A stretch of DNA of 64,000 bases, from the NCBI GenBank assembly GCA_965197745.1, contig CBDANS010000006.1:1408001-1472000 (forward strand), read 5' to 3'. The stretch's first letter is position 1; each line of letters starts with the position of its first letter. The stretch is from Opitutales bacterium. Its GTDB lineage: Bacteria > Verrucomicrobiota > Verrucomicrobiia > Opitutales > PNEW01. Positions 9,649-61,170 of the stretch are shown piece by piece. The notes beneath the pieces are model-generated. The model saw only the letters and a list, made by a program, of their open reading frames with translations. It was not told the origin of the DNA and ran no database searches. The position numbers were made by a program, and so were the translations under genes.

Positions 9649-10181
9649 TGGAGGGACGCGCTCCGTCGCGTCCGTGGATATTCCATTGAAAGCCGTAATC
9701 CAAAGCGGCCACGACGAAGCGTGGCCCTCCAGAAATTCATCATAGCCAGGTGGAGCACGGTGTCCCTGCCGTGATTAGTAAAGTAATAAATAAAGAAGCG
9801 TGCTGGGACAGCCCGCTCCACCTATGTTTTATGCTATCGCAGGTTGAACGAGCTGTCCCTAGCGCGTATGTAGTAATTAAAAAATAAAAAATAGCGTTCT
9901 CTTGATCAGCTGTCGTCCCAATAAATTCTTTACGGCCACGACAACGCGTGGCCCTCCGGAAAATTTGACCGTTGTTATGAGATTAGATGCCCATATTAAG
10001 GACGAAGATGTTTAAAATAAACTGGAGGGACGCGCGGTCGCCTGACGGCCATAGTTCCGCATCTGCGAGGCGACGGCTGATCGCGTCCACGTATTTAATA
10101 ATCAGAGATTAAGAAGCGTGCTGAGATCAACCTTCGTCCCGCGGTGGCGGGACTACGGCGTGACAGGCAGCCCGCTCCACC
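9649..10181. repeat. Cluster of REP-like palindromes (GGAG/GTGGAG-footed), two carrying nested inserts
   Basis: GGAGGGACGCG..CGCGTCC, CGGCCACGAC..GCGTGGCCCTCC and AAGCGTGCTGGGACAGCCCGCTCCACC units separated by AT-rich spacers; inserts at 10041-10080 and 10127-10167. Confidence 0.8.
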
Positions 10182-10294
10182 GTAAATTATGATAAAAATA
10201 TAAAATTGTTTACACTGATAATTAAGGCACATAGACAGTAAAGACCTGAAACAGGCAATTGAGATTTTATGAATAAAAAATTTATGGAGGATTC

Positions 10295-11134
10295 ATGAAA
10301 CCCAAGTTAGCCTGTCCCGACTTCACTTTTCCATTGTTAAAACATGAACAGGCGCTGCAGCTGATTGCCATGCTGGGTATCAAAGGTGTGGATATCGGAT
10401 TGTTTGAAAAGCGATCGCATCTCCAACCATCAATTGAGTTCAAAAATGTGCGGCGTTCAGCATATCGATTAAAAGGGAAGCTGGACAATCTTGGGCTGAA
10501 AGCAGCCGATGTTTTCATGCAACCTGCAGGGGATTTCCGAACCAACGCGATCAACCATCCCCAGCGATCGCGCCGTCGACGGATGCGTGACTGGTACCTG
10601 AAAACACTGGAGTACGCAGCAGGGTGTAAATGCAGACATGTCACGATAACGCCCGGCGCTCATTTCGAAGGAGAATTATACCGTGATTCCTTTGCCCGGG
10701 CCGTTGAGGAATTACAATGGCGGGTAGATGAGGCCAAACACCATCGCATCGTTCTGGGAGTCGAAGCGCACTTAGGATCGATTGTCCCTCGACCCAAACC
10801 TGCGGAAAAACTGGTAAAAAGTGTTCCCGGGTTGACACTGACCTTGGACTACGGGCACTTCATACGCGATGGTTGTTCGGAAGCGGTTATAGAACCGCTG
10901 CTCAAGTATGCCAGTCACTTCCATGTGCGCGGAGGATCCAGGAAGCGTTTGCAGGAAAGCTTTGATAGCAACACCATTGATTTTAAAAGAATATATAAAG
11001 TGATGCAGAAAACAGGGTACCGTGGATGGCTTTCGCTTGAGTACGTCTGGACCGATTGGGAGCATTGCAATGAGTGCGATAATCTTTCTGAGACAATTCG
11101 CTATCGGGATTTTTTTCGGATGCTGGCAAACTGA
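10295..11134 (+). CDS. Sugar phosphate isomerase/epimerase (AP-endonuclease-2 TIM barrel)
   Basis: LGVEAH, LDYGH, HFHVR and GYRGWLSLEY metal-site motifs. Confidence 0.8.
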   Translation: MKPKLACPDFTFPLLKHEQALQLIAMLGIKGVDIGLFEKRSHLQPSIEFKNVRRSAYRLKGKLDNLGLKAADVFMQPAGDFRTNAINHPQRSRRRRMRDWYLKTLEYAAGCKCRHVTITPGAHFEGELYRDSFARAVEELQWRVDEAKHHRIVLGVEAHLGSIVPRPKPAEKLVKSVPGLTLTLDYGHFIRDGCSEAVIEPLLKYASHFHVRGGSRKRLQESFDSNTIDFKRIYKVMQKTGYRGWLSLEYVWTDWEHCNECDNLSETIRYRDFFRMLAN

Positions 11135-11320
11135 AGATACAAGAAAAATAGGGGAGCAAGATGTATTCCATTGGTATGACTTTCAATCTGAAACCCAGAT
11201 GTTACCCCGAGTATAAAGAAGCTCAGACATATTATAGCCTGAGATCGCGGAGCATTTGGCAGTCAACAAAGTAAATATGGCGATCCACTGCTTTGGGGAA
11301 CGGCTATCATGGACAACTCA

Positions 11321-11398
11321 CGGACGCGACAACGCGCGTCCCTCCATTATTCTGTTAATAATAATATTTATCTGGAGGGCCACGCGTCGTCGTGGGCG
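11321..11398. repeat. Inverted pair of REP-like palindromes
   Basis: CGGACGCGACAACGCGCGTCCCTCCA ... TGGAGGGCCACGCGTCGTCGTGGGCG between convergent genes. Confidence 0.75.
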
Positions 11399-11459
11399 TA
11401 TCGAATTATATGGGGTCTACGACGTGGCAAGCGCAAACCAAGTATATTAACGATTAGGA

Positions 11460-12920
11460 TCAGCATTCTGGAAATGGCAACTGGGTGAGTGCTCGCCAGT
11501 AAGCCGGGCCGCGTAAAGATTCCCCGTGCAATGGAGCTTCGGTGCCAATGATTCGATCGATGAGCATTCTGCTCATACGCGTGAGCTGCTCCCGGTAGTC
11601 GGGATTAGGGTAGAGATTGTGGATTTCGTCGGGGTCTTGATCGAGATCATAAAGTTCGCCGTAGTCTTGACCGGGGTAATGAATGAGTTTCCAGCGTTGC
11701 TCTCTCAGCATCTTGACCGCGCCAATTTCCGCAAAAATTGATGATCGCTTCGGCGACGTCTCGCCGCGCAAATCTGAATTCAATTCATGCCCCTGGATCT
11801 GGGAGGGGCGATCTATCCCCAGTTCATTGACGATAGTCGGAAAGATATCGATCAATTCGATGGGTTCTTTCACATTGTTGCCTCGACTAGCTTGGGGTGA
11901 TGGGGACCGAATGATCAATGGAACACGCAATGAGACATCATAGAGCATCGGGTATTCGTCTTTGGGTTTTTGCAGCATTCCGTGATGACCGAGTAGTTCC
12001 CCGTGATCGGACAAGAAAACAATAAGGGTATCATCCAGCAATCCAAGTTGCGTCAGGGAATTCATGATTTTACCAACTTGATCATCTATCATTGTAATCG
12101 AAGCATAGTAATAGGCGATGACACGTTGTAATCTTTCCCTGTCCAGATTTTCATAATTACTCGTTCTTCCTTCGACCTTATACTTCGCTTGCTGAGGCGG
12201 TTTTCCGGACAGGTCGCTATGAAATGAAGCCGGTAGTGGCATATCCGCGGGGTCATACAGGGACGCGTAGGGCTCGGGAGGTTCAAACGGATTATGAGGG
12301 TTAGGAAAACCGACAAAGAGGAAAAAGGGTGTGTCGGACGAACGGTTATGAAGATAGGCAACCGCCTGATCGGCTGCCCACACATCAAAGTAAGCTTCAG
12401 CAGGGATGCAATTCACCGTGCATTGAAATGAATCCAGATATTCCTGAGTGGCATGGTGTGTGTAAGAACGATGAAAGTAATCCCAATAACCGTTATCTTT
12501 AATCCACTTTTTATAGTGTGGGTACAATACCTCGGGATCGGTTGCGGCGGAGTTCTGCCCCTCACACAGCATCTGTTCGGCAAAAGAGGCATTTGTTTTC
12601 TCTTCGAACAAGTGTACTTTTCCCGTGGCGCAGGTATCCCATCCCAATGATTTTAAGAACTCGGGTAGGGTCACTTCCTCTTCATGCATGGCGCAGTGGT
12701 TGGAAATCGCTCCATTGGTATGCGGATACCTGCCCGTAAGCATTGAAGAACGGCTGGGCACACATTGTGGATGCTGCGCAAAAGCAGAGTCGAAACGTGT
12801 TCCTGCGGCCGCTAATTTATCCAGGTATGGCGTCTTGACGATGGCATTGCCATAACAACCGACACTATCCGCGCGCAACTGATCAGCGAGCATGAATATT
12901 ACATTTCGGGAATTTGCCAT
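11460..12920 (-). CDS. Formylglycine-dependent sulfatase (S1)
   Basis: DQLR, CVPSRSSMLTG (CxPxR), GKVH, PHNPF and SDHG motifs. Confidence 0.92.
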   Translation of the reverse strand: MANSRNVIFMLADQLRADSVGCYGNAIVKTPYLDKLAAAGTRFDSAFAQHPQCVPSRSSMLTGRYPHTNGAISNHCAMHEEEVTLPEFLKSLGWDTCATGKVHLFEEKTNASFAEQMLCEGQNSAATDPEVLYPHYKKWIKDNGYWDYFHRSYTHHATQEYLDSFQCTVNCIPAEAYFDVWAADQAVAYLHNRSSDTPFFLFVGFPNPHNPFEPPEPYASLYDPADMPLPASFHSDLSGKPPQQAKYKVEGRTSNYENLDRERLQRVIAYYYASITMIDDQVGKIMNSLTQLGLLDDTLIVFLSDHGELLGHHGMLQKPKDEYPMLYDVSLRVPLIIRSPSPQASRGNNVKEPIELIDIFPTIVNELGIDRPSQIQGHELNSDLRGETSPKRSSIFAEIGAVKMLREQRWKLIHYPGQDYGELYDLDQDPDEIHNLYPNPDYREQLTRMSRMLIDRIIGTEAPLHGESLRGPAYWRALTQLPFPEC

Positions 12921-12996
12921 TTATTTTCCTTATCTTGTTCAGCTATTGCATTGGGCCATGGTTGTTTTATTCCTCTGATATAACACATGTCTAGCT

Positions 12997-13156
12997 CATT
13001 GCGTGGGAGGCCACCAGCTGGCCCCGACTACCGAGTCTCGCGACTGCGAAGCGGCATCTTCCATTCCAGGAGAATAGCCGTCGTGTTTACGATTACCACT
13101 CTATCTACTATAAATTTTTCCATTGAAGCTTCGTCTCTTCACTCCTCGCAATGACA
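12997..13156. repeat. Degenerate TGTC-type REP pair
   Basis: TCATTGCG.. left arm and GCTTCGTC..CTCCTCGCAATGACA right arm; shares CATCTTCCATTCCA with the 3709 region. Confidence 0.5.
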
Positions 13157-13245
13157 ATAGGACGCGGACGAAGTTTTAAACTTTGAGAAATAATAAATCC
13201 CTTAAGCTCCACCGCATACTTGATTTTCTCATTTACGCATAACCC

Positions 13246-14823: not shown

Positions 14824-14880
14824 AGTATAATTTCCTCTACAATGTCTATCTACGTATTATCCGTATCGGGACCTGTTATT

Positions 14881-15606: not shown

Positions 15607-15626
15607 TTGACCTCCTGACTATTGAA

Positions 15627-16697: not shown

Positions 16698-17177
16698 TGG
16701 TGGAGTGGGCTGTCACAGCACGCTTCTTAAACCCTGATTAACAATAATACAAACGCGGTAGGGACCAGCCGTCGTCCCGTCCCGCAATCGCGGGGGGACT
16801 ATGGCCGGCAGGCGACAACGCGCGTCCCTCCATTAATTTGTTAGAAATATTCATTTAAATTTAGGTTATGAATCTTCGTCTTCGTCTATCTCCAATAAAA
16901 TATAATATAATGACAGTTCAAATCGAGACGAAATGGTGGAGCGGGCTCCCCAGCACGCTTCTTTTTTTACTGAACATAAACGCGGTAGGGACACGATTCT
17001 ACTGAGCTCGTCGCAGGCCGCGTTCCACCTGGCAATGATGCCGATTCGGAGGGCCACGCGATGCCTGTCATGCCGTAATCCTCCCGCGACTGCGGGATGG
17101 GACGAAGGCAGATCGTAGCCGTATTAGGGTTCAGCATTCAATAGACAATCCGCGGACGCAACGGATTGCGTCTCTCC
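16698..17177. repeat. REP-like cluster with three nested inserts
   Basis: Same REP types as 9649-10181; inserts at 16765-16812, 16994-17017 and 17064-17112. Confidence 0.8.
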
Positions 17178-17178
17178 A

Positions 17179-24134: not shown

Positions 24135-26363
24135 ATGGATTTTCAATGGATTAAACCTGCGGTGATTATTTATTTTGGGGTAACCCTTCCCCTCAATGCC
24201 GCGCCACAAGATCTCGACAACTTTACCGATTTTGAAGAAGTATCAGGAGAGGGAGATGAATTCATCATTGGCGACCCTCCCAACACCATTCGTGTCATAG
24301 GCTTCACCCTCGAAGATGTGGTGAGCCCAACGCTCGCCCATTCCGGGGCGCGTGCGCTTGTCCTTACGCCGGGCAAGGAAGGGAAAATTTTATTCGAACG
24401 GGGTGTCAACCTTCTTCAATTCTATGCGGCTGAATCGACGGGTGGAGCCAGGATTGAACTTAGAGATAGAAATTTTGAAGTTCTAAGCCCGAACGGTCTG
24501 GTCATTGGTTTACCCACTACCATCAGTCCCGGTGCCAATCCTCTATTACAAAGTTTTGTCGCATACAGTGGAGATTTTACTGATGCATCGGATATGAATT
24601 TTACGAATGGAATAACTGAGATAAAAGTAGTCAATGTGAACGGTGTATTTGCGCTCGATGATCTTGGATTCACCTATGTTGAAGGACCGCCCAATAACAC
24701 GGTATATGAAGATTTTGAAAGAAGATTCAATAATCCTTTATTTGCCGATCCGACTGAATTTACTTTAGGGCAATCTCCCTATACGGCTCATTTTGCTAAC
24801 GGCTTCGTGGGAACTTCGGGAAGGGAGTCATTTAACCACACCTTTCCAGCAGTCATATTGATCCCCAATGAATTCGTGAGTGGGGGCGGGTGGATTATCA
24901 GTGATAATAGTGTAGGGACAATTACCTTTGAAACGCCAGCTGCTCAGGTTCAATTTTATGCCGCTGTTGTCGTTGAAGGTGAAGGAGAGATTAATGTCTT
25001 TGATACAAATGATAACCTGATTACTTCGACAAGGGAAATCCCGAGAAATATTGAAATAACTTCTGTTGTTCCATTCACCTTTTTTGATTTTAATGCCGCG
25101 GAACTGGGTGCTCCAAACGGGATTGGAAAAGTTACCTACCACAGAAATCCGGGAATGGTAACGGGGCAAGGTGATATAGACGATATTGTTATTGATGACA
25201 TTGGGTTTACTCCCATCGGTGCCCCGGGAAGCGGGACCGAGGGTCCCATCCCCTCAGAAGCTCCCTCGATCATTACTCAACCCATAAGCCAGGAAGTGCA
25301 GTCCGGCACCGCTCTAGTCTTGTCAGTAACCGCAACTGGAGATGACTTGAGTTACCAGTGGTATGAAGGTAACAGCGGTGACGTCACTAATCCCATTGCT
25401 GGCGCCACAGACGGGACGATCGACACCGGTATTCTTACCGAGAGCAGGAATTTCTGGGTAGCGGTTACTGGCACAGGTGGTAGCGCTGACAGCGATACCG
25501 CGGTCATCACGGTTGCAGTTCCTTCCGTGCCCCTCGTCCTCGATGGTGCGGGCGATATTGCCGGTGAAAATATCCAGCACCCTAATGGTAATATATTCGA
25601 CCAGGTACTGCTAACAGGAGAAACGATTCAGCTTCAGGCCAGACCGGGACAGATCACACGGGTCTCCTTTATGGATGAAGACGAAGACATCGTGCAGGTA
25701 GAGTTCTCAGGAGCAGGGACCTTTACTGTTACCTTGGACCCGGCCACCTTCCTACCCCCTGCGTTGCCCCCTCGCTACAATCAGGAAGTGTCCTATGTGA
25801 CCGGTAAACCGAGCTTGGTAATCGATGGCGCCGACGACACGACTTTTTTCAGTATCTTCACCGTAGGATCGATTAATGCCGTAAACCAGGCCCTCTTCCC
25901 CGAAGGGCAGGTCTATGATGCCCAGGCCGACGTCACCCTCGTGGAAGTAATCAACTCCACCGGAATGGGTGGCATGCAACTGGCGAATACGGTATTCAGC
26001 GGAGACACAGGGAAGGTAGGCATAGATGCCCGCGGAGTGCCGATAGCAGTACGTTTAACGATAGGTGACATCGACGCCAGTGGCGATGCAGTACCTCATC
26101 TGTTGTTTGGAGAAGATTCCTTTACAGTACCTGCGGGCAATCAGGGACTGCGCATTACTGGAGGAGATTTTGCGCAGGCGAACGGAGCTTCAATCATTGT
26201 CGCGGAGGGTGGATCGACGACCCTTGGGTTTGAAACTCTATTCTCTCAGAATAATTTTAAGTCAGATGGAACAGATCAACCCACACAGAGCATAGACGCG
26301 ACTTTTAGAAATGAGGATGGAGATGAAATTACGGTCTCTGTGATTGAGGTGACGATCAATTAA
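24135..26363 (+). CDS. Secreted/surface protein paralog 2 (Ig-like plus conserved C-terminal domain)
   Basis: Signal peptide; architecture collinear with 1414-3618. Confidence 0.8.
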   Translation: MDFQWIKPAVIIYFGVTLPLNAAPQDLDNFTDFEEVSGEGDEFIIGDPPNTIRVIGFTLEDVVSPTLAHSGARALVLTPGKEGKILFERGVNLLQFYAAESTGGARIELRDRNFEVLSPNGLVIGLPTTISPGANPLLQSFVAYSGDFTDASDMNFTNGITEIKVVNVNGVFALDDLGFTYVEGPPNNTVYEDFERRFNNPLFADPTEFTLGQSPYTAHFANGFVGTSGRESFNHTFPAVILIPNEFVSGGGWIISDNSVGTITFETPAAQVQFYAAVVVEGEGEINVFDTNDNLITSTREIPRNIEITSVVPFTFFDFNAAELGAPNGIGKVTYHRNPGMVTGQGDIDDIVIDDIGFTPIGAPGSGTEGPIPSEAPSIITQPISQEVQSGTALVLSVTATGDDLSYQWYEGNSGDVTNPIAGATDGTIDTGILTESRNFWVAVTGTGGSADSDTAVITVAVPSVPLVLDGAGDIAGENIQHPNGNIFDQVLLTGETIQLQARPGQITRVSFMDEDEDIVQVEFSGAGTFTVTLDPATFLPPALPPRYNQEVSYVTGKPSLVIDGADDTTFFSIFTVGSINAVNQALFPEGQVYDAQADVTLVEVINSTGMGGMQLANTVFSGDTGKVGIDARGVPIAVRLTIGDIDASGDAVPHLLFGEDSFTVPAGNQGLRITGGDFAQANGASIIVAEGGSTTLGFETLFSQNNFKSDGTDQPTQSIDATFRNEDGDEITVSVIEVTIN

Positions 26364-26994: not shown

Positions 26995-27187
26995 AACAAT
27001 AATACAAACGCGGACGAGGCCCTTAATTACGAAATAAATGGTGGAGCGGGCTACCTGTCACGCCGTAGTCCCGCCACCGCGGGACGGGAATACGGTTGAT
27101 CCCAGCCCGCTTCTTTTTTATTACTTATCCGAAAACGTGGTAGGGACACGATTCGACTGAGCTCGTCGCAGGCCGCGTTCCTCCTGG
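26995..27187. repeat. REP-like cluster with two nested inserts
   Basis: Inserts at 27054-27099 and 27149-27172; unit order resembles the 16739-17030 cluster. Confidence 0.8.
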
Positions 27188-29341: not shown

Positions 29342-29460
29342 ATAAAAGGTGCCAGTGTTTCCTTCGACTACGCTCAGGACAGGCATGGGTTCGGGGTTCA
29401 GTGGGAGAAGGTGTCGGGGTTCAGATACCAGTAAACAGTGAACAGTATGGAAGAGGGAAG
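29342..29460 (+). repeat. ORF-less heptamer cassette arm with 24-bp insert
   Basis: GGGTTCR and GTRAACA heptamers directly after the folK stop; insert TCCTTCGACTACGCTCAGGACAGG at 29360-29383. Confidence 0.65.
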
Positions 29461-29582
29461 ATTGGCTGGCTGGATATATCTGTATATTTTATGCATATTC
29501 TATCCTTCCATTCTTCACCTGATTACTGCTAACTTTTCACTTAACCCTCAACTCAGAACCAATAATCCTTATATTTAGAATA

Positions 29583-29789
29583 ATGGACATAGGAAAAGGT
29601 ATCTTCAATTTCCCCTCTGGGTATTTATCACGGCTTCGCTACCCTTGGTTATTTCTCATTACTATTTTGCTCTTTATCTTCGACTTGGTGATTCCGGATG
29701 TCCTGCCTTTTGTCGATGAAATTATTCTCGGTCTGTTGGCCGCAATTTTCAGCAAAATGAAAAAAGAGAAATCCGGGAAGTCAGAGTGA
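29583..29789 (+). CDS. Small membrane protein (DUF6116-like)
   Basis: LRYPWLF..DLVIPDVLPFVDEIILG motif. Confidence 0.65.
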   Translation: MDIGKGIFNFPSGYLSRLRYPWLFLITILLFIFDLVIPDVLPFVDEIILGLLAAIFSKMKKEKSGKSE

Positions 29790-29804
29790 GAGGTGTTAGT
29801 GACT

Positions 29805-30392
29805 GAGGATTCAGGGTTCAGGGTTCAGGAAAAATGCCGATAGTTAAAAGTGAACTGTAGTTAAACGGTCGACTGTCGGAGGAGAGGAATGAGTGCCTAT
29901 AAACGGTTGGAGGATTTAAGTGTTTATCAGAAGCTATGCCAACTTCACATTGAAATCTGTGACTTAACTCACGAGTGGCCCGTTGAGGAAAAATACGAAC
30001 TTGGGTCGCAAGCGAGACGGTCTTCAAACAGTGCAGCTGCTCAATTAGCTGAGAAATACGATGTTTCGGCATATTAGAAATAAGATCGAGGGAGTGAATC
30101 GCAGTCGAGGTGAAGCCGCTGAAATTTTGCACCACATATATATGGCGCATCTGAAGAAATACGAAAGCAGAAATACATATGAGGATTATACCCAACGCTA
30201 TCAGGAATGCATCCGGATGCTGAATGGAATGGAACGGTCCTTAGAGAGGTATCTACCCGAAAGTGCCCATCGATGGCCCGAAGCCACACACGAGGAACGT
30301 TAATCGCAGATTAACTCCACATCGGTCTTTTCTGAACCCTGAACCCTGAACCCTGCCTGTCCTGAGCGAAGCCGAAGGAAACCCTGAACCCT
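29805..30392 (+). mobile_element. Four-helix-bundle cassette 1 with inverted heptamer flanks (putative mobile element)
   Basis: Left flank (GGGTTCA)n plus conserved leader AAAATGCCGATAGTTA; right flank (TGAACCC)n containing a 24-bp insert at 30356-30379. Confidence 0.6.
29889..30303 (+). pseudogene. Four helix bundle protein (23S rRNA-IVP / TIGR02436-like), frameshifted
   Basis: LEDLSVYQK, EEKYELGSQARRSSNS..AE and SRGEAAE motifs; +1 nt near 30064 splits it into ORFs 29889-30077 and 30061-30303, compared with intact EKYDDRHIRN in the 46425 copy. Confidence 0.85.
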
Positions 30393-31370: not shown

Positions 31371-31471
31371 GGGAAAGAAGTGAACGGTGAACAGTGGAAG
31401 AATGAATTGATTATAATTATTTCCCTGAACCCATGCCCGTCCTGAGCGAAGCCGAAGGAAACCCGACACCT
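31371..31471 (+). repeat. Short ORF-less heptamer cassette with 24-bp insert
   Basis: GTGAACGGTGAACAG left arm, CCCTGAACCC right arm, insert at 31436-31459. Confidence 0.65.
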
Positions 31472-31472
31472 T

Positions 31473-33167
31473 ATGCTAGCAAATTCCCAACTCCAAGGTC
31501 TGCTCTTTGGATCTTTTGTCGGTGACGCTCTTTCCATGGGGTCTCTTTGGATTTACAATCCCAAAGCGATTGAAAGAAAGTTTGGAAGAATAACCGACTA
31601 TCGATTGCCTGAACCGAATTCTTATCATCCGAAAAAGAAAGCGGGAGATTTTACTCACTACGGTGATCAAACCATGGTATTGATGGATTCTATTGCCGGG
31701 ATTCAGGCATTTGATTTGGGCGATTTTTCTGCGCGTTGGCAGCAACTCTTCACGGGTTACGAGGGCTATGTGGACCAGGCGACGAAAGACACCTTAGCGC
31801 ATATTGCATCGGGAATTACACCAGGGAGAGCAGGGTCCTCGTCGAACGATTTGGCGGGAGCTTCAAGGATAGCACCCGTGCTTATCGGCTATGCTGATAA
31901 AGATTTCAATGAAGTGCAATCAGCTGCGGAAGCACAGACCGCGATGACCCACAACCACCCTCAAGTAATCGAAGCAGCTACGTATTTTGCACGCGTTGCA
32001 TTGCGTATCCTGGAAGGCACGGGTGTAGAGGCGGCCATTGAATACGCAGCACTTTTTGATTATAACCATCTGCCTGCTGATGAATGGTTGGAACTGGCTG
32101 TTAATCAATTGCATTTAGATTCAGTGAGTGCGGTAAAGACGCTTGGGCAGACTTGTCATATCGACCACGCATTCCCGGCAACACTTTACCTGCTTCTCAA
32201 GCATGGAGAAAATTTTGAAACAACACTTATTGAGAATGTAATGTGTGGTGGAGATTCAGCAGCCCGCGGCTTAATCCTGGGTATGGTATTGGGAGCTAAA
32301 TACGGAATTGAGAGCATCCCAAAAAACTGGCTGAAAGAACTAAACGCCTTTGCCCCTATTGATGAGTATTTTAAAAAAATATACCCTGAAAAAGACGGTG
32401 ATCAAACTGTCGTTCAGGGGGGAAAAGTTTCTTTTGTTAATGATGATGGGTTTGAACTCGCAGCGCGTATGGAACATCCCACCGAATCACCTAAAGCGTA
32501 CGCACTGTTTGCTCATTGCTTTACCTGTTCCAAGGAGATCGCGGCTGCCAGCCGAATCAGCCGCGCTCTTGCCAAAAAAGGAATTGCAGTTTTGCGTTTC
32601 GACTTTACCGGATTGGGCAGCAGCGATGGGGACTTCGCCAACACGAACTTTTCGTCAAATATTCAGGATTTAATCAGCGCGGCTGATTTTCTGCGAAATA
32701 ATTTTACTGCGCCACTGCTACTCATAGGACACAGCCTCGGTGGGACGGCTGTGTTAGCAGCAGGAACGCTCATTCCCGAAGTAAAAGGAATTGCGACAAT
32801 AGGGGCACCCTTCGATCCCGTTCATGTCAGTCATCTTTTTAAAGGAAACATTGAAAAAGTTAAAACTAAAGGCGAAGCAACCGTTCTTTTAGCAGGCCGA
32901 GAGTTTCGTGTAAAAAAACAATTCTTCGATGATCTCGAAAACCAGAGCGTGCTGAATATTCTGCGTGAAACGCGAAAACACGTTCTTATTATGCATTCTC
33001 CCAGCGATGAAACGGTTGGAATTGATAACGCACGCCATATTTATGAGGCAGCCAGGCATCCAAAGAGTTTTATCTCCCTCGACGGTGCTGATCATCTCTT
33101 AACCCAAAGGAGAGACTCGACTTTCGTCGCAGAAATGATCGCTGCCTGGAGCACCCGGTTTGTCTAG
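31473..33167 (+). CDS. ADP-ribosylglycohydrolase fused to an alpha/beta hydrolase (OsmC-associated type)
   Basis: N-terminal [14 protein letters not shown] and GGDSAARG; C-terminal [22 protein letters not shown] and GADHLL. Confidence 0.85.
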
Positions 33168-33516
33168 GTGGGGTGAAGGGTTTCCTTCGGCTTCGCTCAG
33201 GACAGGCAGGGTTCGGTGGTTTCCTTCGACTACGCTCAGGACGGGCATGGGTTCGGGGTTCAGGGTTCAGGTAAAATGCCGATAGTTAGATGTGAACAGT
33301 AAACAGTAAACGGTGAACAGCTGAAGAGAGGAAGAGTGGAAGTATGGAATGATGGATGACAGGAAAAATAAATATATTATAATAACCCTGAACCCTGAAC
33401 CCTGAACCCTGAACCCTGAACCCTGAACCCTGAACCCTGAACCCTGAACCCTGAACCCTGAACCCTGAACCCTGAACCCTGAACCCTGAACCCTGAACCC
33501 TGAACCTCTGAACCTC
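33168..33516 (+). mobile_element. ORF-less heptamer cassette: two 24-bp inserts, conserved leader and (AACCCTG)17 array
   Basis: Leader at 33263-33295 nearly identical to those at 29821 and 46351; 17 perfect AACCCTG units at 33384-33502. Confidence 0.7.
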
Positions 33517-34236: not shown

Positions 34237-35481
34237 TGGAGTGACCCCCAAAAATGGTATCATTAACAGAGAGAGGTTATCGGGATAAACAGATAACCTC
34301 AATGAAAAGAAAAAGATATACAACAGAACAGATCATAGCAATACTGCGGCAGCCCGATACGGGCAAAACCGTGCAGGAAGTCTGCCACGGCAACAACCTA
34401 AGTGAACAGACCTTCTATCGCTGGGGCAAAAAGTATGGCAACTTGGAGCTGGCTGATGCGAAGCGATTTAAAGAGCTGGAAAAGGAGAATACGGAGCTGA
34501 AGAAGATGCTCGCTGATCAAATGCTCAAGCTTCGGGTGTTGGAGGAAACGCTCTCAAAAAAATGGTGAGCCCAAAGCAGAAGAAGCGAGCAGTAAAAGAT
34601 GCGGCTGAGAAGGGGCTGTGCTCGTTTTAGAGGGCTTGTGCTTATCTCAGCCTCAGTTGGTCAACGTACAGCTACCGACCCAAGCAGGCCAGTAAGAAGG
34701 CTCAGCAATTGGCCGAGCGGATTTTGACCTTGTCCTGGGAACATCCCCGTTACGGTTACCGGCGCATTCGTGCCTTGCTGGTGAAAGAAGGTTGGGCGGC
34801 AAGCAGGAAATTTGTACAGGCAGTGCGACGTTCTTCGGGCTTACAGGTAAAGCCCCCGAAAAAGCGTAGACACCGTCAGGGGATCTCTACTGGGCTCCCT
34901 ACTAAAGCAACCGGTCGCAATCACGTCTGGTCCTGGGACTTTGTCCATGATCGTACAGACAATGGCGGTATGCTAAAGATGATGACCTTGATCGATGTAC
35001 CGAGGAGCTGAAAGCGACGACACTCAAGCGAAGCGAAGACATATACGCGTAAATGTTTACGCATCCGGGTAGCTCGACAGCTCACCTCAACCGATGTTCT
35101 CTCGGTACTCAGCGAAACCATCGATGAAGAGGGAGTTCCTAGCTATATCCGCAGTGACAACGGCAGTGTTCCGAGGAGCGAAGCGACGACATGCGAAGCC
35201 ATTCATTGCTCATCAGGTGCAGCAGTGGTTGTCCGACAAAAAGATCAAGGCGATATATATCGATCCGGGCAGTCCCTGGCAAAACGGTTTCATCGAATCG
35301 TTCCATGCCCGTTTTCGTGAGGAGTGTTTAAACCGTGAACAGCTATGGACTTTAACCGAAGCACGTGTAGTGATCGAGGATTGGCGCCAGACCTATAACC
35401 ATGATCATCCCCACAGTCGATTAGGCTTTAAAAGCCCACAAGAGTTTGTCACATTCCTTTCAGATCTTGGCCGCGTTCGGG
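34237..35481 (+). mobile_element. IS3-family element A (IS407-like), defective, right end lost
   Basis: IRL TGGAGTGACCCCCAAAAATGGTATCA; orfA 34302-34568; A7 slippery site 34556-34562; orfB with YGYRRI, WSWDF, SDNG and PWQNGFIESF; TAG at 34628 and inserts at 34998-35039 and 35169-35199. Confidence 0.9.
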
Positions 35482-36799
35482 TGGTCGGGTTACACAAACT
35501 GGTCCACAGGGAGAGTTAGTCTGGAGAGGTTAATGTTGAAGTTAAGTTGGTAGAGGAAGTCAAGGCTTGGGCGCAATGAGGGCGTAGCCCGAATGGAGCC
35601 CGAGCCTTCGGTATTGAGGTTTTCAGTGAAGTGCCGTGGAGTGATGTTGCCGAGGCTGCGGTGGGGTCGGACATGATTGTAAAGCCAGCGCCAATCTTCG
35701 ATGACCACGCGGGCTTCGGTCAAAGTCCATAGCTGTTCACGGTTTAAACACTCCTCGCGAAAACGGGCATGGAACGATTCAATGTATCCGTTCTGCCAAG
35801 GGCTTGCTGGTTCGATATAGAGGGTTTTGATTTTCATCGCAGTTAGCCAGGCTCTCAATTGGCTTTCAATGAATGGCTTTGCATGTCGTCGCTTCGCTCC
35901 TCGGAACGGAACCGTTGTCGCTACGAATATATTTTGGCGGCCCATGCCGGTCGAGCAGTTTTTGCATGATACCGCGCACCGTTTCCGCATTGATATGGCG
36001 ATCAACATGGATCACCCGGCACTCGCGGGTGTACTCATCGAGCACGGTCAGCATTTTTAGACTGCCGCCGCGAACCGTCTTATCGTGGATAAAATCCCAG
36101 GTCCAAACATGGTCGGGATGTTCGGCCTTTGTCGGTAGCCCGGTGCAGACACCCCTGCGCCGGCGTCTTGGCTTGCGTGGGGGGATCGCCAGACCCAGTT
36201 CACGTCGCAGACCTTGCACGAGACGTTTACCCACCTGCCAGCCTTCGTCCTTCAACAGCTTCGTGATCTTGGGATAGCCCCACCTCGCGTATTGCCGTGA
36301 TAACCGCCTTACTGCCGCTTTTAGTTTCGTTAGCCAGGCATCCGGATGCTTGGCCCTATACGCATAGGTGGAACGGTGCAGCCGAAAGTACCGGCACCCC
36401 GCTCGCATCGAACACTGGCCCCGAGTCACAAGTCTCTCTGCCACTTGCCGCTTGTGCCCAGGGCTTACAGTTTTTTTTCGAGGGTCTCCTGCAGGATCTC
36501 TATCCCCAGCATCTTGTCCGCCAGCATCCGTTTTAACCGCGCGTTCTCCTTCAAAGAGCTCCTTCATCCGCTTGGCCTGGTTGACATCAATCATCCCAAA
36601 CTCACGTTTCCAGCGGTGGAAGGTCTGTTCGCTTATGTTGTTCTCGCGGCATGCTTCCAGGATCGTTTTCCCTTTGTCCGCCTGGCGCAGCATCCGTATT
36701 TTCTCTTCGGTCGTGTATCTTTTGCCTTTCATTGTCTGTGTCCTTTCTAGTTGGACCAGACTAACTTTTCAAGTGGACCAGTTTTCGTGGTCACGACCA
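35482..36799 (-). mobile_element. IS3-family element B, full length but defective
   Basis: Terminal IRs TGGTCGGGTTACACAAACTGGTCCAC and TGGTCGTGACCACGAAAACTGGTCCAC; orfA starts at 36732 with an extra base near 36554; A8 slippery site 36471-36478; orfB broken by a 31-bp insert at 35876-35906; no target-site duplication. Confidence 0.92.
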
Positions 36800-42560: not shown

Positions 42561-43344
42561 AACTCGTGCGAGAGGAAACAGGGTAACCTCGGAGCTGACC
42601 AATCTCTGCTGGAGTCTGACATACTGCATTAGCGAGGATTACGGGCAGGCAAGCATACTCATTGCTCGCAGTTGTGAGCAGCATCTTCGTTTGAGTACGC
42701 ACAGCTTCATGCTCAGATCCGGGCAACTTGTTCTAATACAAATACCACGCCAGCGACAAAGGAGGAGATTACATTTAAGGTGGGTGGGGAGCCTTCACAA
42801 ATCGAAATACCAGGGTTGCGAGCCGTTTATAAGCGATTTGCTTGGGCTGCTAGCACGCGTTCACTCGCATCTACTGACGAATCTAAATATAGATGCTAAT
42901 ACAGGGAGGGGATAAAATTGTTATTTAAATACGGGAAGGTATTAAATAAGAAGAATCCTCAAACCATCAGTTAAATAACGCATTTTAAACTGTAACCCGA
43001 ACAACTTATCTGAAACCTGAGTTTCTGTGAATCTGCTTCATCGGGAAATCTGGAGATGCCATTACAGGTACCGTTGCGATTAAACTTACCTTTACCGAGC
43101 GTATAAATTTGTTGTTTTTTATCACAAGGGACACTTAATTGATATTATTAAATCCACTCAAAATTCTTGTCCGATTCCTGGCTGAACCTCACCAGAAAAA
43201 TATGATTCCTGCCTATTCCTGCCAGACATTTTGAGGCAACGCCAGGAAATCAAAGGAAACCATAAGTTATTTTTGAATCACTATTTAAGTGTAAATTATT
43301 ATTAATAAACAGTTTCTGTAGCGTTACTATGTCCCGTTCATAGT

Positions 43345-43647
43345 CGGTTTCATCGAGTCGTTTCACAACCGCTTACGCGATGAGTGTTTGAACCGTGAAG
43401 TGTTGCTCAGCGTGGCTGAAGCGCAAGTGCTAATAGAACAATGGCGTCAGACCTATAACAATGAACATCCCCACAGTCGATTAGGCTTTAAAAGCCCACA
43501 AGAGTTTGTCACATTCCTTTCCGCTCTTGGCCGCGTTCGGGCTACGCCCTCACTGCGCCAAGATCTCTCATATACATCAATCCTAAAACCATTAACACCC
43601 GGTAGTTCTCTCACTTAAAATTTGGTACGAAATACGGGGTCCGATCA
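43345..43647 (+). mobile_element. IS3-family 3' remnant (relative of element A) with right terminal repeat
   Basis: GFIESFHNRLRDECLNRE..HPHSRLGFKSPQEF; the 3' part is nearly identical to 35388-35481; ends TGGTACGAAATACGGGGTCCGATCA, resembling the element A IRL. Confidence 0.85.
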
Positions 43648-44958: not shown

Positions 44959-45058
44959 CGAGCAGCCCGCTCCACCTATCTGCTTAACACTGCTACTGCT
45001 TTCCACCGTTTACAGATTACTGACTACTGATCTTAGCTCCTGGGAACGTTATAATAGT

Positions 45059-46096: not shown

Positions 46097-46334
46097 AACT
46101 TTGAAATTTGCTGTGATTTTTTCTCATTGTAACTGTTCGAGTGACATAGTAAGCACAAAATACTTTATTTCAATAGACTTGATAATTATAAGCCCTGTTA
46201 ATCGTATGCAAGAATGCTTTGGAATGATTTCACGTGACTATAATAAATGAAAATTCTTCAGGGTATAAAACTATTCATTAATATTATACCTTCTAGCATT
46301 GCTTTCTTTATAGATCAAGTAGTGATCAGTGGAA

Positions 46335-46960
46335 GAGGATTCTGCGTTCAGGGTTCAGGGAAAATGCCGATAGTTAGATGTGATAGTAAACAGTAAATAA
46401 GGGATCGTGTGTCGAAGAAAAGAGATGAATGCATATAAGCGCTTTGAAGATTTGAGCGTTTACCAGAAACTTTGCCAACTGCATATAAGGGTCTGTGATC
46501 TAACTCACATGTGGCCCGCTGAGGAGAAGTATGAACTTGGATCCCAAGCGAGACTCTCTTCAAACAGTGTAGCTGCTCAAATGGCTGAGAAATATGACGA
46601 TCGGCATATTAGAAATAAGATCGAGGGAGTAAATAGAAGTCGAGGCGAAGCGGCCGAAACTGTGCACTACTTATATATGGCCCACCTGAAAGAATATGAA
46701 AGTAGAGTTACATATGAAGATTATAGCCAACGCTATCATGAATGCATCCGGATGTTGAATGGATTGGAATGAACTTTGGAGAAGCAATTACCCGAACAAG
46801 ATCATCGCTGGCCGGAAGTCGCGCGAGGAGACGAAGAACGGTACGACGGCTTCCCTGAACCCCGAACCCTCTTCTCCCGAACCCCGCCTATCCTGAGCGT
46901 AGGCGAAGGGAACCCCACCTGCCCTGAGCTTGATGAAATCCCTGAGCCAAGTTGAAGGTT
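46335..46960 (+). mobile_element. Four-helix-bundle cassette 2 with inverted heptamer flanks
   Basis: GGGTTCA plus leader at 46351-46383; right flank of (CYGAACC) repeats with a 24-bp insert at 46887-46910. Confidence 0.6.
46425..46850 (+). pseudogene. Four helix bundle protein with premature TGA
   Basis: Close paralog of the 29889 copy; TGA at 46770-46772 where the paralog has Arg; homology (LEKQLPE..HRWPE) continues past the stop. Confidence 0.75.
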
Positions 46961-47069: not shown

Positions 47070-47612
47070 ATGGGAAAAACTGAAATAAAATTAATGATGA
47101 AAAACAGAATTGTCTTTATTGGTCTAATTACAGCCATTTTTACCCTTAATTGTGAAGCGCAGGTTAGTAAATTTAATTATAAACTCGGTACGGATTTTTC
47201 CGCTTACAAGACATACGCATGGCACCCTAAAATGGATGGTGTTTTCGATGGAACCGTGGACACGGATTTTCGTGATCCGGAAAATATTCAGCGTGTTAAA
47301 AAGGCGGTAGAAAAAGAATTGGTGAAAAAAAATTGCCAGCAAGTCGATCGTAATGAAGCTGATCTCCACATTGCCTATAGCGGAAATCTGGAAAAAATAG
47401 TTACCTGGGGTCGTAAAGATGATAGAATCTATCTTTTCGAGGATACCCAAAACGCTAAAGGCACACTTTTTGTCGATATTATTGACGCAAATCATGACGA
47501 ACTATTATGGCGTGGCTGGATAACCGATACCGTTGGTCTAGAGGTTAAAAAAAAGAAAATTATAAAGACGGTATCTAAAATTCTGAAGAATTACCCCCCG
47601 AAGGTGAAGTGA
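47070..47612 (+). CDS. DUF4136-like exported protein
   Basis: TDFSAYKTYAW, GTLFVDIIDA..LLWRG and ILKNYPP motifs. Confidence 0.75.
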   Translation: MGKTEIKLMMKNRIVFIGLITAIFTLNCEAQVSKFNYKLGTDFSAYKTYAWHPKMDGVFDGTVDTDFRDPENIQRVKKAVEKELVKKNCQQVDRNEADLHIAYSGNLEKIVTWGRKDDRIYLFEDTQNAKGTLFVDIIDANHDELLWRGWITDTVGLEVKKKKIIKTVSKILKNYPPKVK

Positions 47613-47647
47613 ACCCTTCGTCTCCTCCCAGGGGAGGCAGTGAGAGT

Positions 47648-48310
47648 GGTTTCAGGGTTAAGGGTTCAGGTATCAGTGAACGGTGAACAGTGGATTGTGA
47701 AAAAAATCGGGGTTCACTGTTAAGTGTCGGTAGGAGTTGACGATATCTAAAAGTGAACAGTTAGAGGAGAAAACAGATTGTAGAGAGAAATCCACACGCT
47801 GCTAATTTCAGAGAACTGATAGTTTATCAGAAGGCAAAAGTTGTATCTGAGGAGATCTTCATCATCTCAAAACAATTTCCTAAGGAAGAAACCTATTCTC
47901 TTACGAACCAGGTGCGACGGTCATCCAGATCGATTGGTGCCCAGATTGCGGAGGCATGGGGAAAACGACGCTACGAAAAACACTTTGTAAGCAAAATTAC
48001 AGATGCAGATGCCGAACAATATGAAACGCAGCACTGGATCGAGATGGCAGTAAATTGTGGGTATTTACGCGAAGATAATGCGAACGAGTTATGTGACAAG
48101 CTATCCAAAATAGGACGCATGCTAAATAGCATGATAGTTAAATCCGCATCCTTCTGTGATAAGATCCCAATTGTTATCAGAGAAGATGCCACTGAATTTT
48201 TCACATAATAAAGAGATATCTATTTATCTACTGTTCACCGTTTACTGTTCACCGTTCACTTTCCACCGCCCCGCCTGCCCTGGGCTAAGTCGAAGGAGCT
48301 CCCGACAACC
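47648..48310 (+). mobile_element. Four-helix-bundle cassette 3 with inverted heptamer flanks
   Basis: Left GGGTT(C/A)A and GTGAACR repeats; right CYGTTCA repeats with a 24-bp insert at 48274-48297. Confidence 0.6.
47777..48208 (+). CDS. Four helix bundle protein (divergent subtype) lacking a canonical start codon
   Basis: FRELIVYQKA..FPKEETYSLTNQVRRSSRSIGAQIAEAW..ETQHW; frame open from 47765; only ATT at 47777 follows the GAGGAG SD. Confidence 0.75.
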   Translation: MVERNPHAANFRELIVYQKAKVVSEEIFIISKQFPKEETYSLTNQVRRSSRSIGAQIAEAWGKRRYEKHFVSKITDADAEQYETQHWIEMAVNCGYLREDNANELCDKLSKIGRMLNSMIVKSASFCDKIPIVIREDATEFFT

Positions 48311-50594: not shown

Positions 50595-50742
50595 GAGAAG
50601 CGTGCTGGGGATCAAGCAATAATTTAAGTCTGCGTTTGCCACGTCGTCTTCGTCCTACCCAAAAATTCGTTGCGGCCATGATCAACCGTCGTCCCGTCCC
50701 GCAATGGCGGGAGGACTATGTCGGACAAACAGCCCACTCCAT
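50595..50742. repeat. REP-like cluster with nested insert
   Basis: GAAGCGTGCTGGGA, CGGCCATGA plus insert at 50682-50729, then CAGCCCACTCCA. Confidence 0.65.
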
Positions 50743-51776: not shown

Positions 51777-51852
51777 AACGGAATTGAATTAAGGTGAGTG
51801 GGTTTTATTTATAGTAGTGGCCGCGAATTGTATGTTTGTTAATCAGGGATAA

Positions 51853-52029
51853 AGAAGCGTGCTGGGGACAGCCCTCTCCACCATTTATTATTTTTTGCAA
51901 TGTATAGGTGGAACTCGGTGTCCCTACCGCGTTATCGGGTAATTTATATCTAAAAAATCATTGCGCGATTATACCAGCCGTCATCCGAATTAATTCGTTA
52001 CGGCATGACAGTCATCGCGTGGTCCTCCA
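51853..52029. repeat. REP-like cluster (uninterrupted units)
   Basis: AAGCGTGCTGGGGACAGCCCTCTCCACC and AGGTGGAACTCGGTGTCCCTACCGCGTT; these serve as empty-site references for the inserts. Confidence 0.7.
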
Positions 52030-52835: not shown

Positions 52836-53110
52836 GGGTTCAGGGTTCAGGGTTCAGGTTCAGGGTTCAGGGTTCAGGGTTCAGGGTTCAGGGTTCAGGG
52901 TTCAGGGTTCAGGGTTCAGGGTTCAGGGTTCAGGGTTCAGGGTTCAGGGTTCAGGGATTTTTTTTCTAACACTTAAAACTTAACACCGCCACTGCATTTT
53001 CACCGTTCACTGTTTACTGTTCACATCTTTCCCGACACCAGACGCCTTCTCCCTACTCTTCACTTCTTTCCCGAACCCTAATTCTTCTCCCCACTGTTCA
53101 CTGGACAACC
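52836..53110 (-). mobile_element. ORF-less heptamer cassette in reverse orientation with a (GGGTTCA) x17 array
   Basis: 52836-52953 has 16 GGGTTCA units plus one 6-nt unit; the reverse complement of the AGATGTGAACAGTAAACAG leader lies at about 53008-53028. Confidence 0.7.
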
Positions 53111-53113
53111 GGC

Positions 53114-55612: not shown

Positions 55613-56158
55613 TTAATGGGTCATTCCTTCCACATGGATGGTAACTGTTAATTCAGGATCAACTTTCAGGACTAAAACTTTAACGATCGGCAAGTCCCAA
55701 TCAAGGTGGTCAATTATCGTGCTCCCATCAATTGTCCATTGGGGCCCCTCAGTATGAACATTAATGGGAAAAGATATATCTTTTTCTATGCCATGAAGCG
55801 TTAACTTGCCTTCCGCAATGATTTTTTCTCCCAGTTCGTGGATTTTTGCTAAAACGAAAGTAGCGGTTGGAAATTTATGGTGCTCCTCCCATTTGAGCAT
55901 AGCCTTGTCCCGGGCTTTCTTGCCTGTTTTAAGATCCTCAAAGTCGAAACTGAATTCCGTGTTTAGAATTTTTGCACTTTCAGTGTCGACCATGATTTTT
56001 AAATCATAATTTTCTAAACTGGCTACAAATGAATGAGCGGTAACATTAACTGCGACTTCCACCTTAGAATTCGCTTTTTCAATTTGCAACAGTTGCTCTT
56101 CGCCATAAAGCGAGAACACGGTGGTAAAAAGAGTAATGATACCTATTAACTTTTTCAT
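55613..56158 (-). CDS. YceI family protein
   Basis: Signal peptide, LKTGKKARD..M, FPTATF and GKLTLHG motifs. Confidence 0.85.
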   Translation of the reverse strand: MKKLIGIITLFTTVFSLYGEEQLLQIEKANSKVEVAVNVTAHSFVASLENYDLKIMVDTESAKILNTEFSFDFEDLKTGKKARDKAMLKWEEHHKFPTATFVLAKIHELGEKIIAEGKLTLHGIEKDISFPINVHTEGPQWTIDGSTIIDHLDWDLPIVKVLVLKVDPELTVTIHVEGMTH

Positions 56159-56336
56159 AAGTATTATCGTAAATCAGTTCAACTAATTGCTAATAATACA
56201 GCACTTGCTGGCTAATTGACGAAATTGGCGTAAAATTCATTATTATCTTAATAGCTTTAAATAGAAATTCATTGACCCAATCTAATCGATTCCTGTCTAA
56301 TCGCTAGCTCAATTTCGCATTTCAAAAACATGATAC

Positions 56337-60817: not shown

Positions 60818-60870
60818 ACCGCGGATTACGCTGATGAGTTAAACCGCGGATTACGCGGATTAAGCGGATT
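60818..60870 (+). repeat. Short 9-mer tandem repeat (CGCGGATTA)n
   Basis: accgcggattacgctgat..aaccgcggattacgcggattaagcggatt directly after the fdhF stop. Confidence 0.7.
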
Positions 60871-60956
60871 GTTGCCTTGGTGATATTCATATGTTGATGC
60901 GTTGATGGATGTCGGGCTTCGCTGTCGGTACAGACTTCACCCCAATTATTTCATTA

Positions 60957-61170
60957 CGGCCACGATCTGCCTTCGTCCAGTCCCGCAGTCGCGGGAGGGC
61001 TACGGCATGACAGGCATCGCGTGGCCTCCGGAAATGTGCAATTATCTTCGTCTGCGTCTGCTTCTTCGTCTTGAATTGAATTAAGATAAAGCAGCGTGCT
61101 GGGACAGCCCGCTCCACCTCATAAATATTAACTGAGATAAAAATGTGGAACGCGGACAAGCAGCCCGCTC
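60957..61170. repeat. REP-like cluster with nested insert
   Basis: CGGCCACGA[60966-61014]CATCGCGTGGCCTCC and GCGTGCTGGGACAGCCCGCTCCACC. Confidence 0.78.

Follow-up and report, generated by a model that had tools for sequence, protein, structure and literature searches.

A short hairpin module inside repetitive extragenic palindromes, a probable mobile element with relatives in several bacterial phyla

The 64-kb stretch of bacterial DNA analysed here, which we call the window, raises the question of what interrupts some of its small palindromes. The window has a GC content of 40-51%, and its inter-gene spacers are AT-rich and packed with short GC-rich palindromes, among them repetitive extragenic palindromes (REPs). 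Several REP types occur both in an empty form and in a form filled by a module of 40-49 nt, and an earlier sequence-only reading had proposed that the modules entered the REPs at a fixed position without target duplication. The seven modules that it listed, and the empty and filled REPs, are present where it placed them, and reading the window sequence added an eighth, decayed copy; a strict pattern for the module matches five of the seven, where 0.00 matches are expected from 100 shuffles. On the evidence considered here, we judge it moderately probable that the module is a mobile DNA element, non-autonomous and made of a single hairpin, that ranks with the GTAG-tagged REPs, and that its family is spread over several phyla.

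From head to tail, the modules consist of a TC(A/T)RCC(G/T)TCG head, a GC inner hairpin, the word CTAYGGC and a CAGG tail, and the strict pattern was written as CCCGC-N4-GCGGG-N1-4-YTAYGKC-N3-4-CAGG. The copies are given below with the type of their REP arms, the extent of the REP and module composite where defined, and the score from the covariance model R1, which was built from copies of other genomes as described further on.

10127-10167, plus strand: module #1, 41 nt, in a type A REP; composite 10111-10181; R1 58.9 bits, E 1e-11
27054-27099, minus strand: module #2, 46 nt, in a type A REP; composite 27040-27115; R1 39.1 bits, E 5e-7
10041-10080, minus strand: module #3, 40 nt, inner stem weakened, in a type C REP; composite 10024-10091; R1 28.7 bits, E 1.3e-4
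16765-16812, plus strand: module #4, 48 nt, with a type D left arm (AACGCGGTAGGGA) and a type C right arm; composite 16752-16831; R1 36.1 bits
50682-50729, plus strand: module #5, 48 nt, with the tail CAAA instead of CAGG, a type B left arm and a type A right arm; R1 finds the inner hairpin only, E 0.28-0.63
60966-61014, plus strand: module #6, 49 nt, in a type B REP; composite 60955-61029; R1 38.5 bits
17064-17112, minus strand: module #7, 49 nt, in a type B REP; composite 17048-17123; R1 36.3 bits
51974-52012, plus strand: decayed eighth copy, recognised by eye and missed by R1, with AT-rich CGAATTAATTCG in place of the inner hairpin

All eight copies, one of them decayed, lie between open reading frames (ORFs) and contact REP arms, the decayed copy adjoining a type B right arm at 52013-52028. 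The empty counterparts are as follows.

9793-9822 (plus), 16699-16728 (minus), 16935-16963 (minus), 51852-51882 (plus) and 61089-61118 (plus): five empty type A REPs, AAGAAGCGTGCTGGGACAGCCCGCTCCACC
9931-9957 (plus), 9704-9730 (plus) and 11374-11400 (minus): three empty type B REPs, TACGGCCACGACAACGCGTGGCCCTCC
11320-11345 (plus) and 9650-9676 (minus): two empty type C REPs, ACGGACGCGACAACGCGCGTCCCTCC, with a variant at 17149-17176 (plus)

In type A and type B REPs the insert is the sole difference between the filled and the empty form; it sits at GA^C, and no letters are duplicated. Joining the flanks of module #1 gives the empty type A REPs found at 9793-9822, 16699-16740 and 61084-61118, and the joined flanks of modules #6 and #7 give the empty type B REPs at 9917-9962 and 9931-9958, respectively. 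For type A, an empty ..GCTGGGA^CAGCCCGCTCCACC can be set against a filled ..GCTGAGA, 41 nt of module, and then CAGCCCGCTCCACC. The fixed GA^C position claimed by the sequence-only reading is thus upheld, whereas its placement at the exact palindrome centre is not. Type A REPs fold as a 4+4 bp stem with the 3-nt loop GGA, and the insertion point is at the 3' edge of that loop; type B REPs fold as a 7-bp stem with the loop ACAACG, and in types B and C the insertion follows the first loop base. A further REP type, D, has the loop GGGAC. All copies in the window point the same way with respect to the REP tail (CCTCC or TCCACC), and the composites of REP and module fold as three-tier hairpins with energies of -15 to -22 kcal/mol as DNA and z scores of -0.6 to -3.3, the composite of module #2 reaching -22 kcal/mol and z -3.3.

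How many separate insertions do these copies record? Modules #1 and #2, both in type A REPs, are 89% identical, modules #6 and #7, both in type B REPs, are 92% identical, and module #3 is nearest to module #4, both having type C right arms. The right-hand loop remnant CATCG is common to #6, #7 and the decayed copy and occurs in no empty type B REP, and the DNA beyond the REP arms is unrelated between composites. Since the core variants track REP type, much of the copy number in the window is attributable to the spread of composites. The simplest reading is that there were a few primary fusions, at least one each for types A, B and C, after which composites dispersed as units, and hence that the module hitch-hikes on REPs that are themselves copied; we infer that #4, with D-left and C-right arms, and #5, with B-left and A-right arms, are chimeras produced by later reshuffling. 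The repeated independent insertion expected by the sequence-only reading therefore finds only partial support within the window, where filled and empty forms are in part separate lineages, the outcome that it had regarded as fatal; across REP types and across genomes, the data show independent insertion to have been repeated.

Solo and chimeric REP halves are also present, at 61144-61174 (a reversed type D right arm with a type A right arm), 44960-44976 (a type A right arm) and 50595-50613 (a type A left arm), the last of these lying 60 nt upstream of module #5 and being followed by TCAAGC, a module-like start. Such halves suggest breakage and rejoining at GA^C.

That each REP type carries its own module variant also lends something to an opposite account, in which the three-tier hairpin of REP arms and module is the original structure, the empty REPs have lost their middle by deletion or precise excision, and nothing was ever inserted. 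The copies in other genomes bear directly on this account.

A reference-genome collection scanned with the strict pattern yielded at least 109 listed loci (numbered here with the prefix L), the window's own genome not being among them; the statements on taxa hold among the matches listed and are not a census by taxon. The head CCGCCTTCGT, which the pattern does not require, occurs in 76 of 110 distinct matches, while many of the remaining 34 are in high-GC genomes, e.g. of actinobacteria, and appear chance-like, and a few resemble diverged family members. The true copies are mostly from Verrucomicrobiota (Chthoniobacterales, Udaeobacter, Opitutales), and other carriers are Kiritimatiellota, Peribacteria/Peregrinibacteria/Patescibacteria, Marinimicrobia, a Pyrinomonadaceae genome (Acidobacteriota) and a deltaproteobacterial metagenome-assembled genome. 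R1 was built from 76 copies, none from the window. Its hits over 772 kb of other genomes number 115 and are spread across 82 of the 109 loci. It recovers six of the seven window modules at full length, with E values from 1e-11 to 1.3e-4, and #5 in part only. Because a model built from outside copies recovers those in the window, the module belongs to a widespread family, within which sequence identity is about 85-90% across phyla. A covariance model and a classification of flanks had been envisaged in the sequence-only reading, and both were run on the outside copies, whose identified hosts include REPs, other repeats and tRNA ends. Plasmid and phage collections gave zero matches to a 47-nt copy, the motif letters matched only unrelated primers in full-text literature, and a literature query on nested REPs turned up nothing to the point.

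In the alignment of the 76 copies, the consensus fold is built from an outer stem of 6 bp with a single bulge, an internal loop of 4x4 (TTCG opposite CTAC), an inner stem TCCCGC-N4-GCGGGA, and CAGG at the 3' end. Paired cells amount to 91.8%, against 88.6% in shuffles, and the outer stem is supported by changes on both sides in 24 cells, a count that none of 500 shuffles equalled. An alternative outer helix, GCCT/AGGC, in which the CAGG tail and the C at position +1 pair with the head, is compatible with the alignment (87% of cells paired) and is uninformative, CAGG being fixed by the pattern. CTAC follows the inner stem in 65 of the 76 copies, with CTAT in 10 and TTAC in one, YTAY being required by the scan pattern; TTCG is present in 53.

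Read from the other strand, the internal loop is GTAG/CGAA, with GTAG immediately 5' of the inner hairpin, and CGTC leads into that hairpin on the strand as given (TTCGTCCCGC). The sequence-only reading had separated the module from the known REP classes by a CCTG foot distinct from GTAG and CGTC, a distinction that falls once CTAYGGC is recognised as GCCRTAG on the other strand. What the module has in common with GTAG-tagged REPs is a short GC-rich stem-loop (stem 6-13 bp with a small loop), here the inner stem TCCCGC/GCGGGA with its 4-nt loop, lengthened to 9 bp with a bulge in copies #4-#7 of the window; a high-copy, dispersed and mostly extragenic distribution; and an unpaired tetranucleotide, in those REPs GTAG or the degenerate GYAG/GTRG, at the end of the stem-loop, although the tag lies in the internal loop and YTAY is forced by the pattern. 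The two inverted REPs in one long hairpin that characterise a REPIN are not seen, the module being a single asymmetric hairpin with GTAG on one side and CGAA on the other. IS200/IS605-derived palindrome-associated transposable elements (PATEs), which insert 3' of a fixed tetra- or pentanucleotide without duplication and carry subterminal hairpins with guide tetranucleotides at both ends, make a less clear comparison: insertion of the module is strand-specific and leaves no duplication, but only one flank letter per side is conserved and there is one hairpin instead of two.

Conservation ends abruptly at both module ends, and in 88 outside copies only one flanking letter on each side is non-random, position -1 being A in 45 and T in 23 (p 2e-9) and position +1 being C in 58 (p 3.5e-16). 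When the flanks were joined in silico, 21 of 94 copies matched an uninterrupted copy of another repeat, which is a lower bound because only flanks that are themselves repeated can find a partner in 1.2 Mb. The hosts restored in this way include two REPs of one Verrucomicrobiota genome, GGGACGAGA^C.AGCTCGTCCCTCC and GGACGGCTC^GGAGAGCCGTCC; a REP of a Patescibacteria genome, GCGCGGGAAG^CATCCCGCGC; a tandem repeat, the AATGACGAA motif of Udaeobacter-like genomes; CGCTCAA repeats; and a 65-nt element common to L033, L041 and L007. At the Verrucomicrobiota locus L075 a single REP, the first of those just named, exists in three forms, with the full module, with a short module that has no inner hairpin, and empty. 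This REP is closely similar to type C of the window, and the module occupies the identical GA^C spot.

The short modules, found at 935-989, 1196-1250 and 4481-4535 in L075 and at about 240-275 in L101, keep the outer stem, TTCG and CTAC, and have 5 nt (CACCG, CACAG or TTCCG) where the inner hairpin would be. They may have lost the inner hairpin in one piece, or that hairpin may itself be an insert of a third level.

A different kind of host is provided by tRNA genes. None is present in the window. Among 60 loci scanned, seven have a tRNA gene within 100 nt of a module. At four loci the module splits a short stretch copied from the 5' end of the adjacent tRNA gene, and in every case the split falls between positions 12 and 13 of the tRNA (..TAGCT^CAG..); at a fifth it splits a copy of a tRNA 3' end. 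With the module taken out, 17-23 nt of tRNA are restored:

L013, 5560-5870: copy of the 5' end of tRNA Pro; 20/20 rebuilt
L019, 9900-10130: copy of the 5' end of tRNA Thr; 17/17 rebuilt
L020, 4220-4480: copy of the 5' end of tRNA Arg; 21 matches in 24 columns
L062, 9900-10170: copy of the 5' end of tRNA Arg; 18/18 rebuilt
L016, 9870-10110: copy of the 3' end of tRNA Gln; 18/18 rebuilt

These five genomes are outside Verrucomicrobiota, and in the four 5'-end cases the intact tRNA is 18-92 nt away. The partial tRNA copies may be a product of insertion or pre-existing fragments that are tolerated. At L086 (221-333), the module head (CGCCCGCC) and the 5' end of a tRNA-Gly gene, taken as its reverse complement, coincide, and a 10-nt direct repeat of the head after the module makes the exact position of the module relative to the tRNA ambiguous.

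Taken together, these observations show the module to be a discrete insert with fixed ends (5' TC or CC and 3' CAGG), placed precisely and in one orientation, without target duplication, at a weak (A/T)^C site. The insertion proposed in the sequence-only reading is borne out in this respect, by pairs of empty and filled sites in the window, in L075 and in the tRNA-end copies of five genomes. The terminal inverted repeats and target-site duplication of a miniature inverted-repeat transposable element (MITE) are absent, the empty site being restored exactly and with no duplicated letters.

The account in which the three-tier hairpin is original can now be weighed in full. It draws on the same arm-plus-module architecture in L075 and on the short cores of that locus, which indicate that internal parts can be lost. 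However, the module occurs in dozens of unrelated, non-palindromic contexts, and a REP origin cannot explain its presence inside tandem repeats, inside another small element and inside tRNA-end copies whose uninterrupted sequence is known; moreover, precise excision would itself make the module a mobile unit. We regard this account as distinctly improbable.

The breadth of hosts also bears on REP specificity. In 20 of 95 copies, three of them from the window, the flanks are complementary beyond the 5% level set by a control with mismatched flanks. By this test, 17 of 89 copies outside the window are hosted by palindromes, compared with about 5% expected, and the other 72 are not in palindromes. 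Hairpin loops are favoured hosts, yet most copies are elsewhere, and the description of the module as a parasite of REPs, put forward in the sequence-only reading, fits this genome, in which all eight window copies are at REP arms, and not the family.

A further account is that the module is a selected host motif, a protein-binding DNA or RNA hairpin with a role as a processing, stabilising or termination signal, and not mobile at all. The conservation across phyla of some 40 nt, including unpaired letters of the internal loop, would suit such a motif, as would the intergenic position of the copies and the possibility that the GUAG/CGAA loop of the other strand forms stable purine-purine pairs. 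Against this stand the copies that split other repeats and tRNA-end copies, with empty sites restored exactly, and a copy density that varies from eight in 64 kb, one of them decayed, in the window to one hit in many 20-kb loci. There is no T-run, and Rfam gave no gathering-level hit in the window and only chance-level microRNA hits around copies at E up to 1. The strand of the module relative to neighbouring genes is unbiased (14 same versus 20 opposite, and 13 versus 21), which fits selfish DNA and argues against a role at the transcript level. We consider a purely host-selected motif highly improbable.

We return to the reading of the module as a non-autonomous mobile element. The sites hit in the window are loops of REPs that belong to three or four resident types, at GA^C, and after a few primary insertions the composites of REP and module would have been copied around as units. 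Copying of this type would leave each REP type with its own module variant and unrelated DNA outside the arms, and two copies would have been reshuffled into chimeras afterwards. Movement may have proceeded through single-stranded DNA, with a HUH tyrosine enzyme supplied in trans, either a Y1 enzyme of the RAYT/IS200 type or a rolling-circle Y2 enzyme, that would recognise the hairpin together with its foot tetranucleotide. Most restored targets have YTG^ when read on the GTAG strand, where the element starts with CCTG, a combination that would fit a guide-type rule.

Several findings weigh against this reading. The inner stem and CAGG were required by the scan pattern, and their invariance in the 76 copies accordingly proves nothing. 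GTAG itself occurs in only three of the seven window copies, with ATAG in three and GTAA in one, and it sits within the internal loop and not at the free end of the element. Independent insertions within the window are thinly supported, by three REP types that each have their own module variant. The RAYT of E. coli cuts at C^T, unlike the A^T/C and G^C of the junctions seen here. The RAYT/TnpA-like genes that the sequence-only reading had looked to near the module were found neither among the window ORFs nor in the 109 loci: there were zero Pfam hits to PF01797 (Y1/RAYT) among 41 large and 56 small ORFs of the window, and a phmmer search with E. coli RayT of 6,618 six-frame ORFs from the 109 loci (1.17 Mb) and the window found nothing credible, the one weak match having E 0.0095. 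Clustering of the genes neighbouring the copies gave no family in more than four loci, the small clusters being ORFs that run over repeats.

The missing RAYT, in the Pfam search of the window and in the phmmer search of loci and window, together with junctions other than C^T, can also be read as pointing to a module that is mobile but moved by something other than Y1/RAYT, such as a rolling-circle enzyme (IS91/Helitron-like Y2), a site-specific recombinase or an RNA intermediate. Helitrons and IS91 follow the rules 5' TC, 3' CTRR and insertion at A^T, which the ends of the module resemble: 5' TC or CC and 3' CAGG with a hairpin, inserted between two fixed letters without duplication. An RNA intermediate has reportedly been proposed for cyanobacterial small dispersed repeats, and the partial tRNA-end duplications beside an intact tRNA could come from read-through or capture. 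However, no gene for such an enzyme was found near the copies either, and GTAG directly 5' of a hairpin is a hallmark of the RAYT/IS200 guide arrangement, as the accounts of RAYT on which we draw describe it in part. A mover of this other kind seems to us unlikely.

A bolder formulation, which we advance only tentatively as a possibility on the doubtful side, is that the module represents a phylum-spanning class of "nano-transposon". Such an element would be a single hairpin of about 41 nt that integrates precisely at (A/T)^C in single-stranded DNA, prefers the loops of hairpin repeats and the D-arm segment of tRNAs, where a local partial duplication would spare the tRNA, and nests into Russian-doll palindromes. 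It would be driven by an enzyme new to REPs, either a RAYT clade with a new cleavage rule or another HUH enzyme.

The window also contains a second type of filled REP, distinct from the composites above, as follows.

16979-17029 and 27134-27184, plus strand: type D REPs filled by a different module of 24-26 nt (..ACGATTCTACTGAGCTCGTCGCAG..; ACGATTC.ACTGAGCTCGTCGCAG), repeat family D17
51907-51933 and 9842-9868, minus strand: short, empty-like type D REPs

This second module, which is unrelated to the one of 40-49 nt, is likewise found filled (L015, 11370-11420) and empty (9930-9955) in an Opitutales record. Since it too has filled and empty sites, tiny inserts of several kinds are present in these genomes. 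That record, OY829953.1 (45% GC), contains an empty type A REP (L099, 372-403) that is 94% identical to that of the window over 32 nt, and a perfect type D REP (AACGCGCTAGGGACAGCGCGTTCCACC) on the minus strand of L015, at offset 8857 of the reverse complement. From three shared repeat families, the type A REP, the type D REP and the 24-nt module, the host of the window is probably related to this organism; for FolP, identity to any named relative does not exceed about 65%.

Larger units in the window include three cassettes with genes of PF05635 (23S rRNA intervening sequence protein).

29357-30383: PF05635 cassette, gene at 29865-30300, split over two frames
about 46328-46924: PF05635 cassette, gene at 46401-46769
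47612-48300: PF05635 cassette, gene at 47765-48205

These cassettes have inverted ends (CCTTCG.CT.CGCTCAGGACAGGC; GGTTTCCTTCG.CT.CGCTCAGGACAGGCA.GG) and heptamer repeats at their bounds, and additional solo cassette ends at 31431-31473 and 33177-33263 flank a gene at 31473-33167. At L027 the module is inserted in the end sequence of a PF05635 cassette, at GCT^CAGG. A kinship between module and cassette, considered because of the shared words CCTTCG, CTACG and GACAGGC, was rejected: R1 misses the cassettes, L041, the only locus with a homologue, has unrelated ends, and the cassette end in L027 is a target.

Heptamers of the type CCCTGAA/GGGTTCA form long tandem arrays at 33384-33513 and 52843-52961 and occur also at 29798-29830, 30332-30355 and 47655-47680; GTGAACA-type repeats are found at 31380-31400 and 48230-48266, and also beside a module in L099. 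Two IS3-family transposase gene sets are oppositely oriented, at 34245-35516 (plus, broken over several frames) and 35490-36732 (minus), an rve_3 fragment lies at 43322-43615, and a 124-nt repeat joins 35358-35481 and 43418-43541. Two large paralogous ORFs without clear Pfam domains, at 1450-3618 and 24135-26363, are 77% identical over 300 nt (2731-3030 versus 25476-25775) and 73% over 110 nt.

REPs are among the commonest bacterial repeats, and their mode of movement and mosaic clustering are still argued. In this context the module offers unusually clean before-and-after sites, in REP loops, in other repeats and in tRNA-end copies, and its exact ends, defined orientation, two-letter junction rule and cross-phylum conservation make the partner enzyme, the strand transfer and the build-up of nested palindromes directly testable. 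It is also a warning for annotators that long composite palindromes may be stacked insertions.

How does the module compare with systems already known? Tobes and Pareja reportedly found in 2006 that insertion sequence (IS) elements, IS1397, ISKpn1 and others, target REP loops. The use of REP palindromes as an insertion target is common to both; those elements are of full size, carry their own transposase and make short target duplications, whereas the module is a 40-nt passenger with neither transposase nor duplication. The small dispersed repeats of Nostoc, said to have been described by Elhai et al. in 2008, are reportedly hairpins of 21-27 nt that occur inside one another, inside tandem repeats of heptamers and inside mini-transposons. 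The heptamer arrays and several small module types of the window recall this picture, but the sequences and the host group differ. A cyanobacterial origin of the window, suggested by the heptamers, is rejected, since there are only three HIP1 octamers and the gene content is not cyanobacterial. The intervening sequences of 23S rRNA associated with PF05635, including that of Coxiella, are selfish inserts housed in a hairpin, which they lengthen. They are far larger than the module, carry genes and act at the RNA level in rRNA, and only short words are shared.

The closest comparison is with the GTAG and CGTC super-families of REPs, which occur in eight phyla including Verrucomicrobia according to the sections at hand of Di Nocera, De Gregorio and Rocco (2013; PMC3733652). 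The module is like the REPs described there in being a short GC-rich stem-loop with GTAG on its 5' side and CGTC on the other strand, dispersed and intergenic, and present in Verrucomicrobia. It is unlike them, as far as those sections go, in wrapping the tagged hairpin in a second conserved stem with a CAGG tail, in its sequence identity of about 85-90% across phyla, and in having as hosts three or four named REP types as well as tRNA-end copies. Peptide words encoded by the module do not appear in the table of intragenic REPs in that paper (PMC3733652), in the portion considered, and the module may equal one of its 24 families.

The REP/REPIN-RAYT system is the second close relative. RAYT requires a hairpin with a 5' GTAG, and the E. 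coli enzyme cuts C^T, in the excerpts used here of Messing (2012; PMC3479197). With the system of these excerpts and of those from Bertels and Rainey (2011; PMC3116915), the module shares the hairpin with a guide-like tetranucleotide, GTAG, on its 5' side, and HUH chemistry on single-stranded DNA would yield insertion without target duplication. Unlike the REPINs of these sources, the module has one hairpin where they have an inverted pair of REPs; a flanking RAYT was found neither in the window nor at the loci, and the junctions of the module are A^T/C and G^C rather than C^T.

REPs "inserted within" palindromes are themselves on record in the same sections of the 2013 survey (PMC3733652), for A. 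variabilis GTAG-15 and H. neapolitanus CGTC-1, and also for T. roseum GTAG-23, whose empty targets number in the hundreds. The kind of element is therefore already known, REPs within palindromes having been noted in 2013, whereas this particular family with its two stems, its spread over phyla, the precise rule for the junction, the nesting on three levels and the tRNA-end cases appear to be new.

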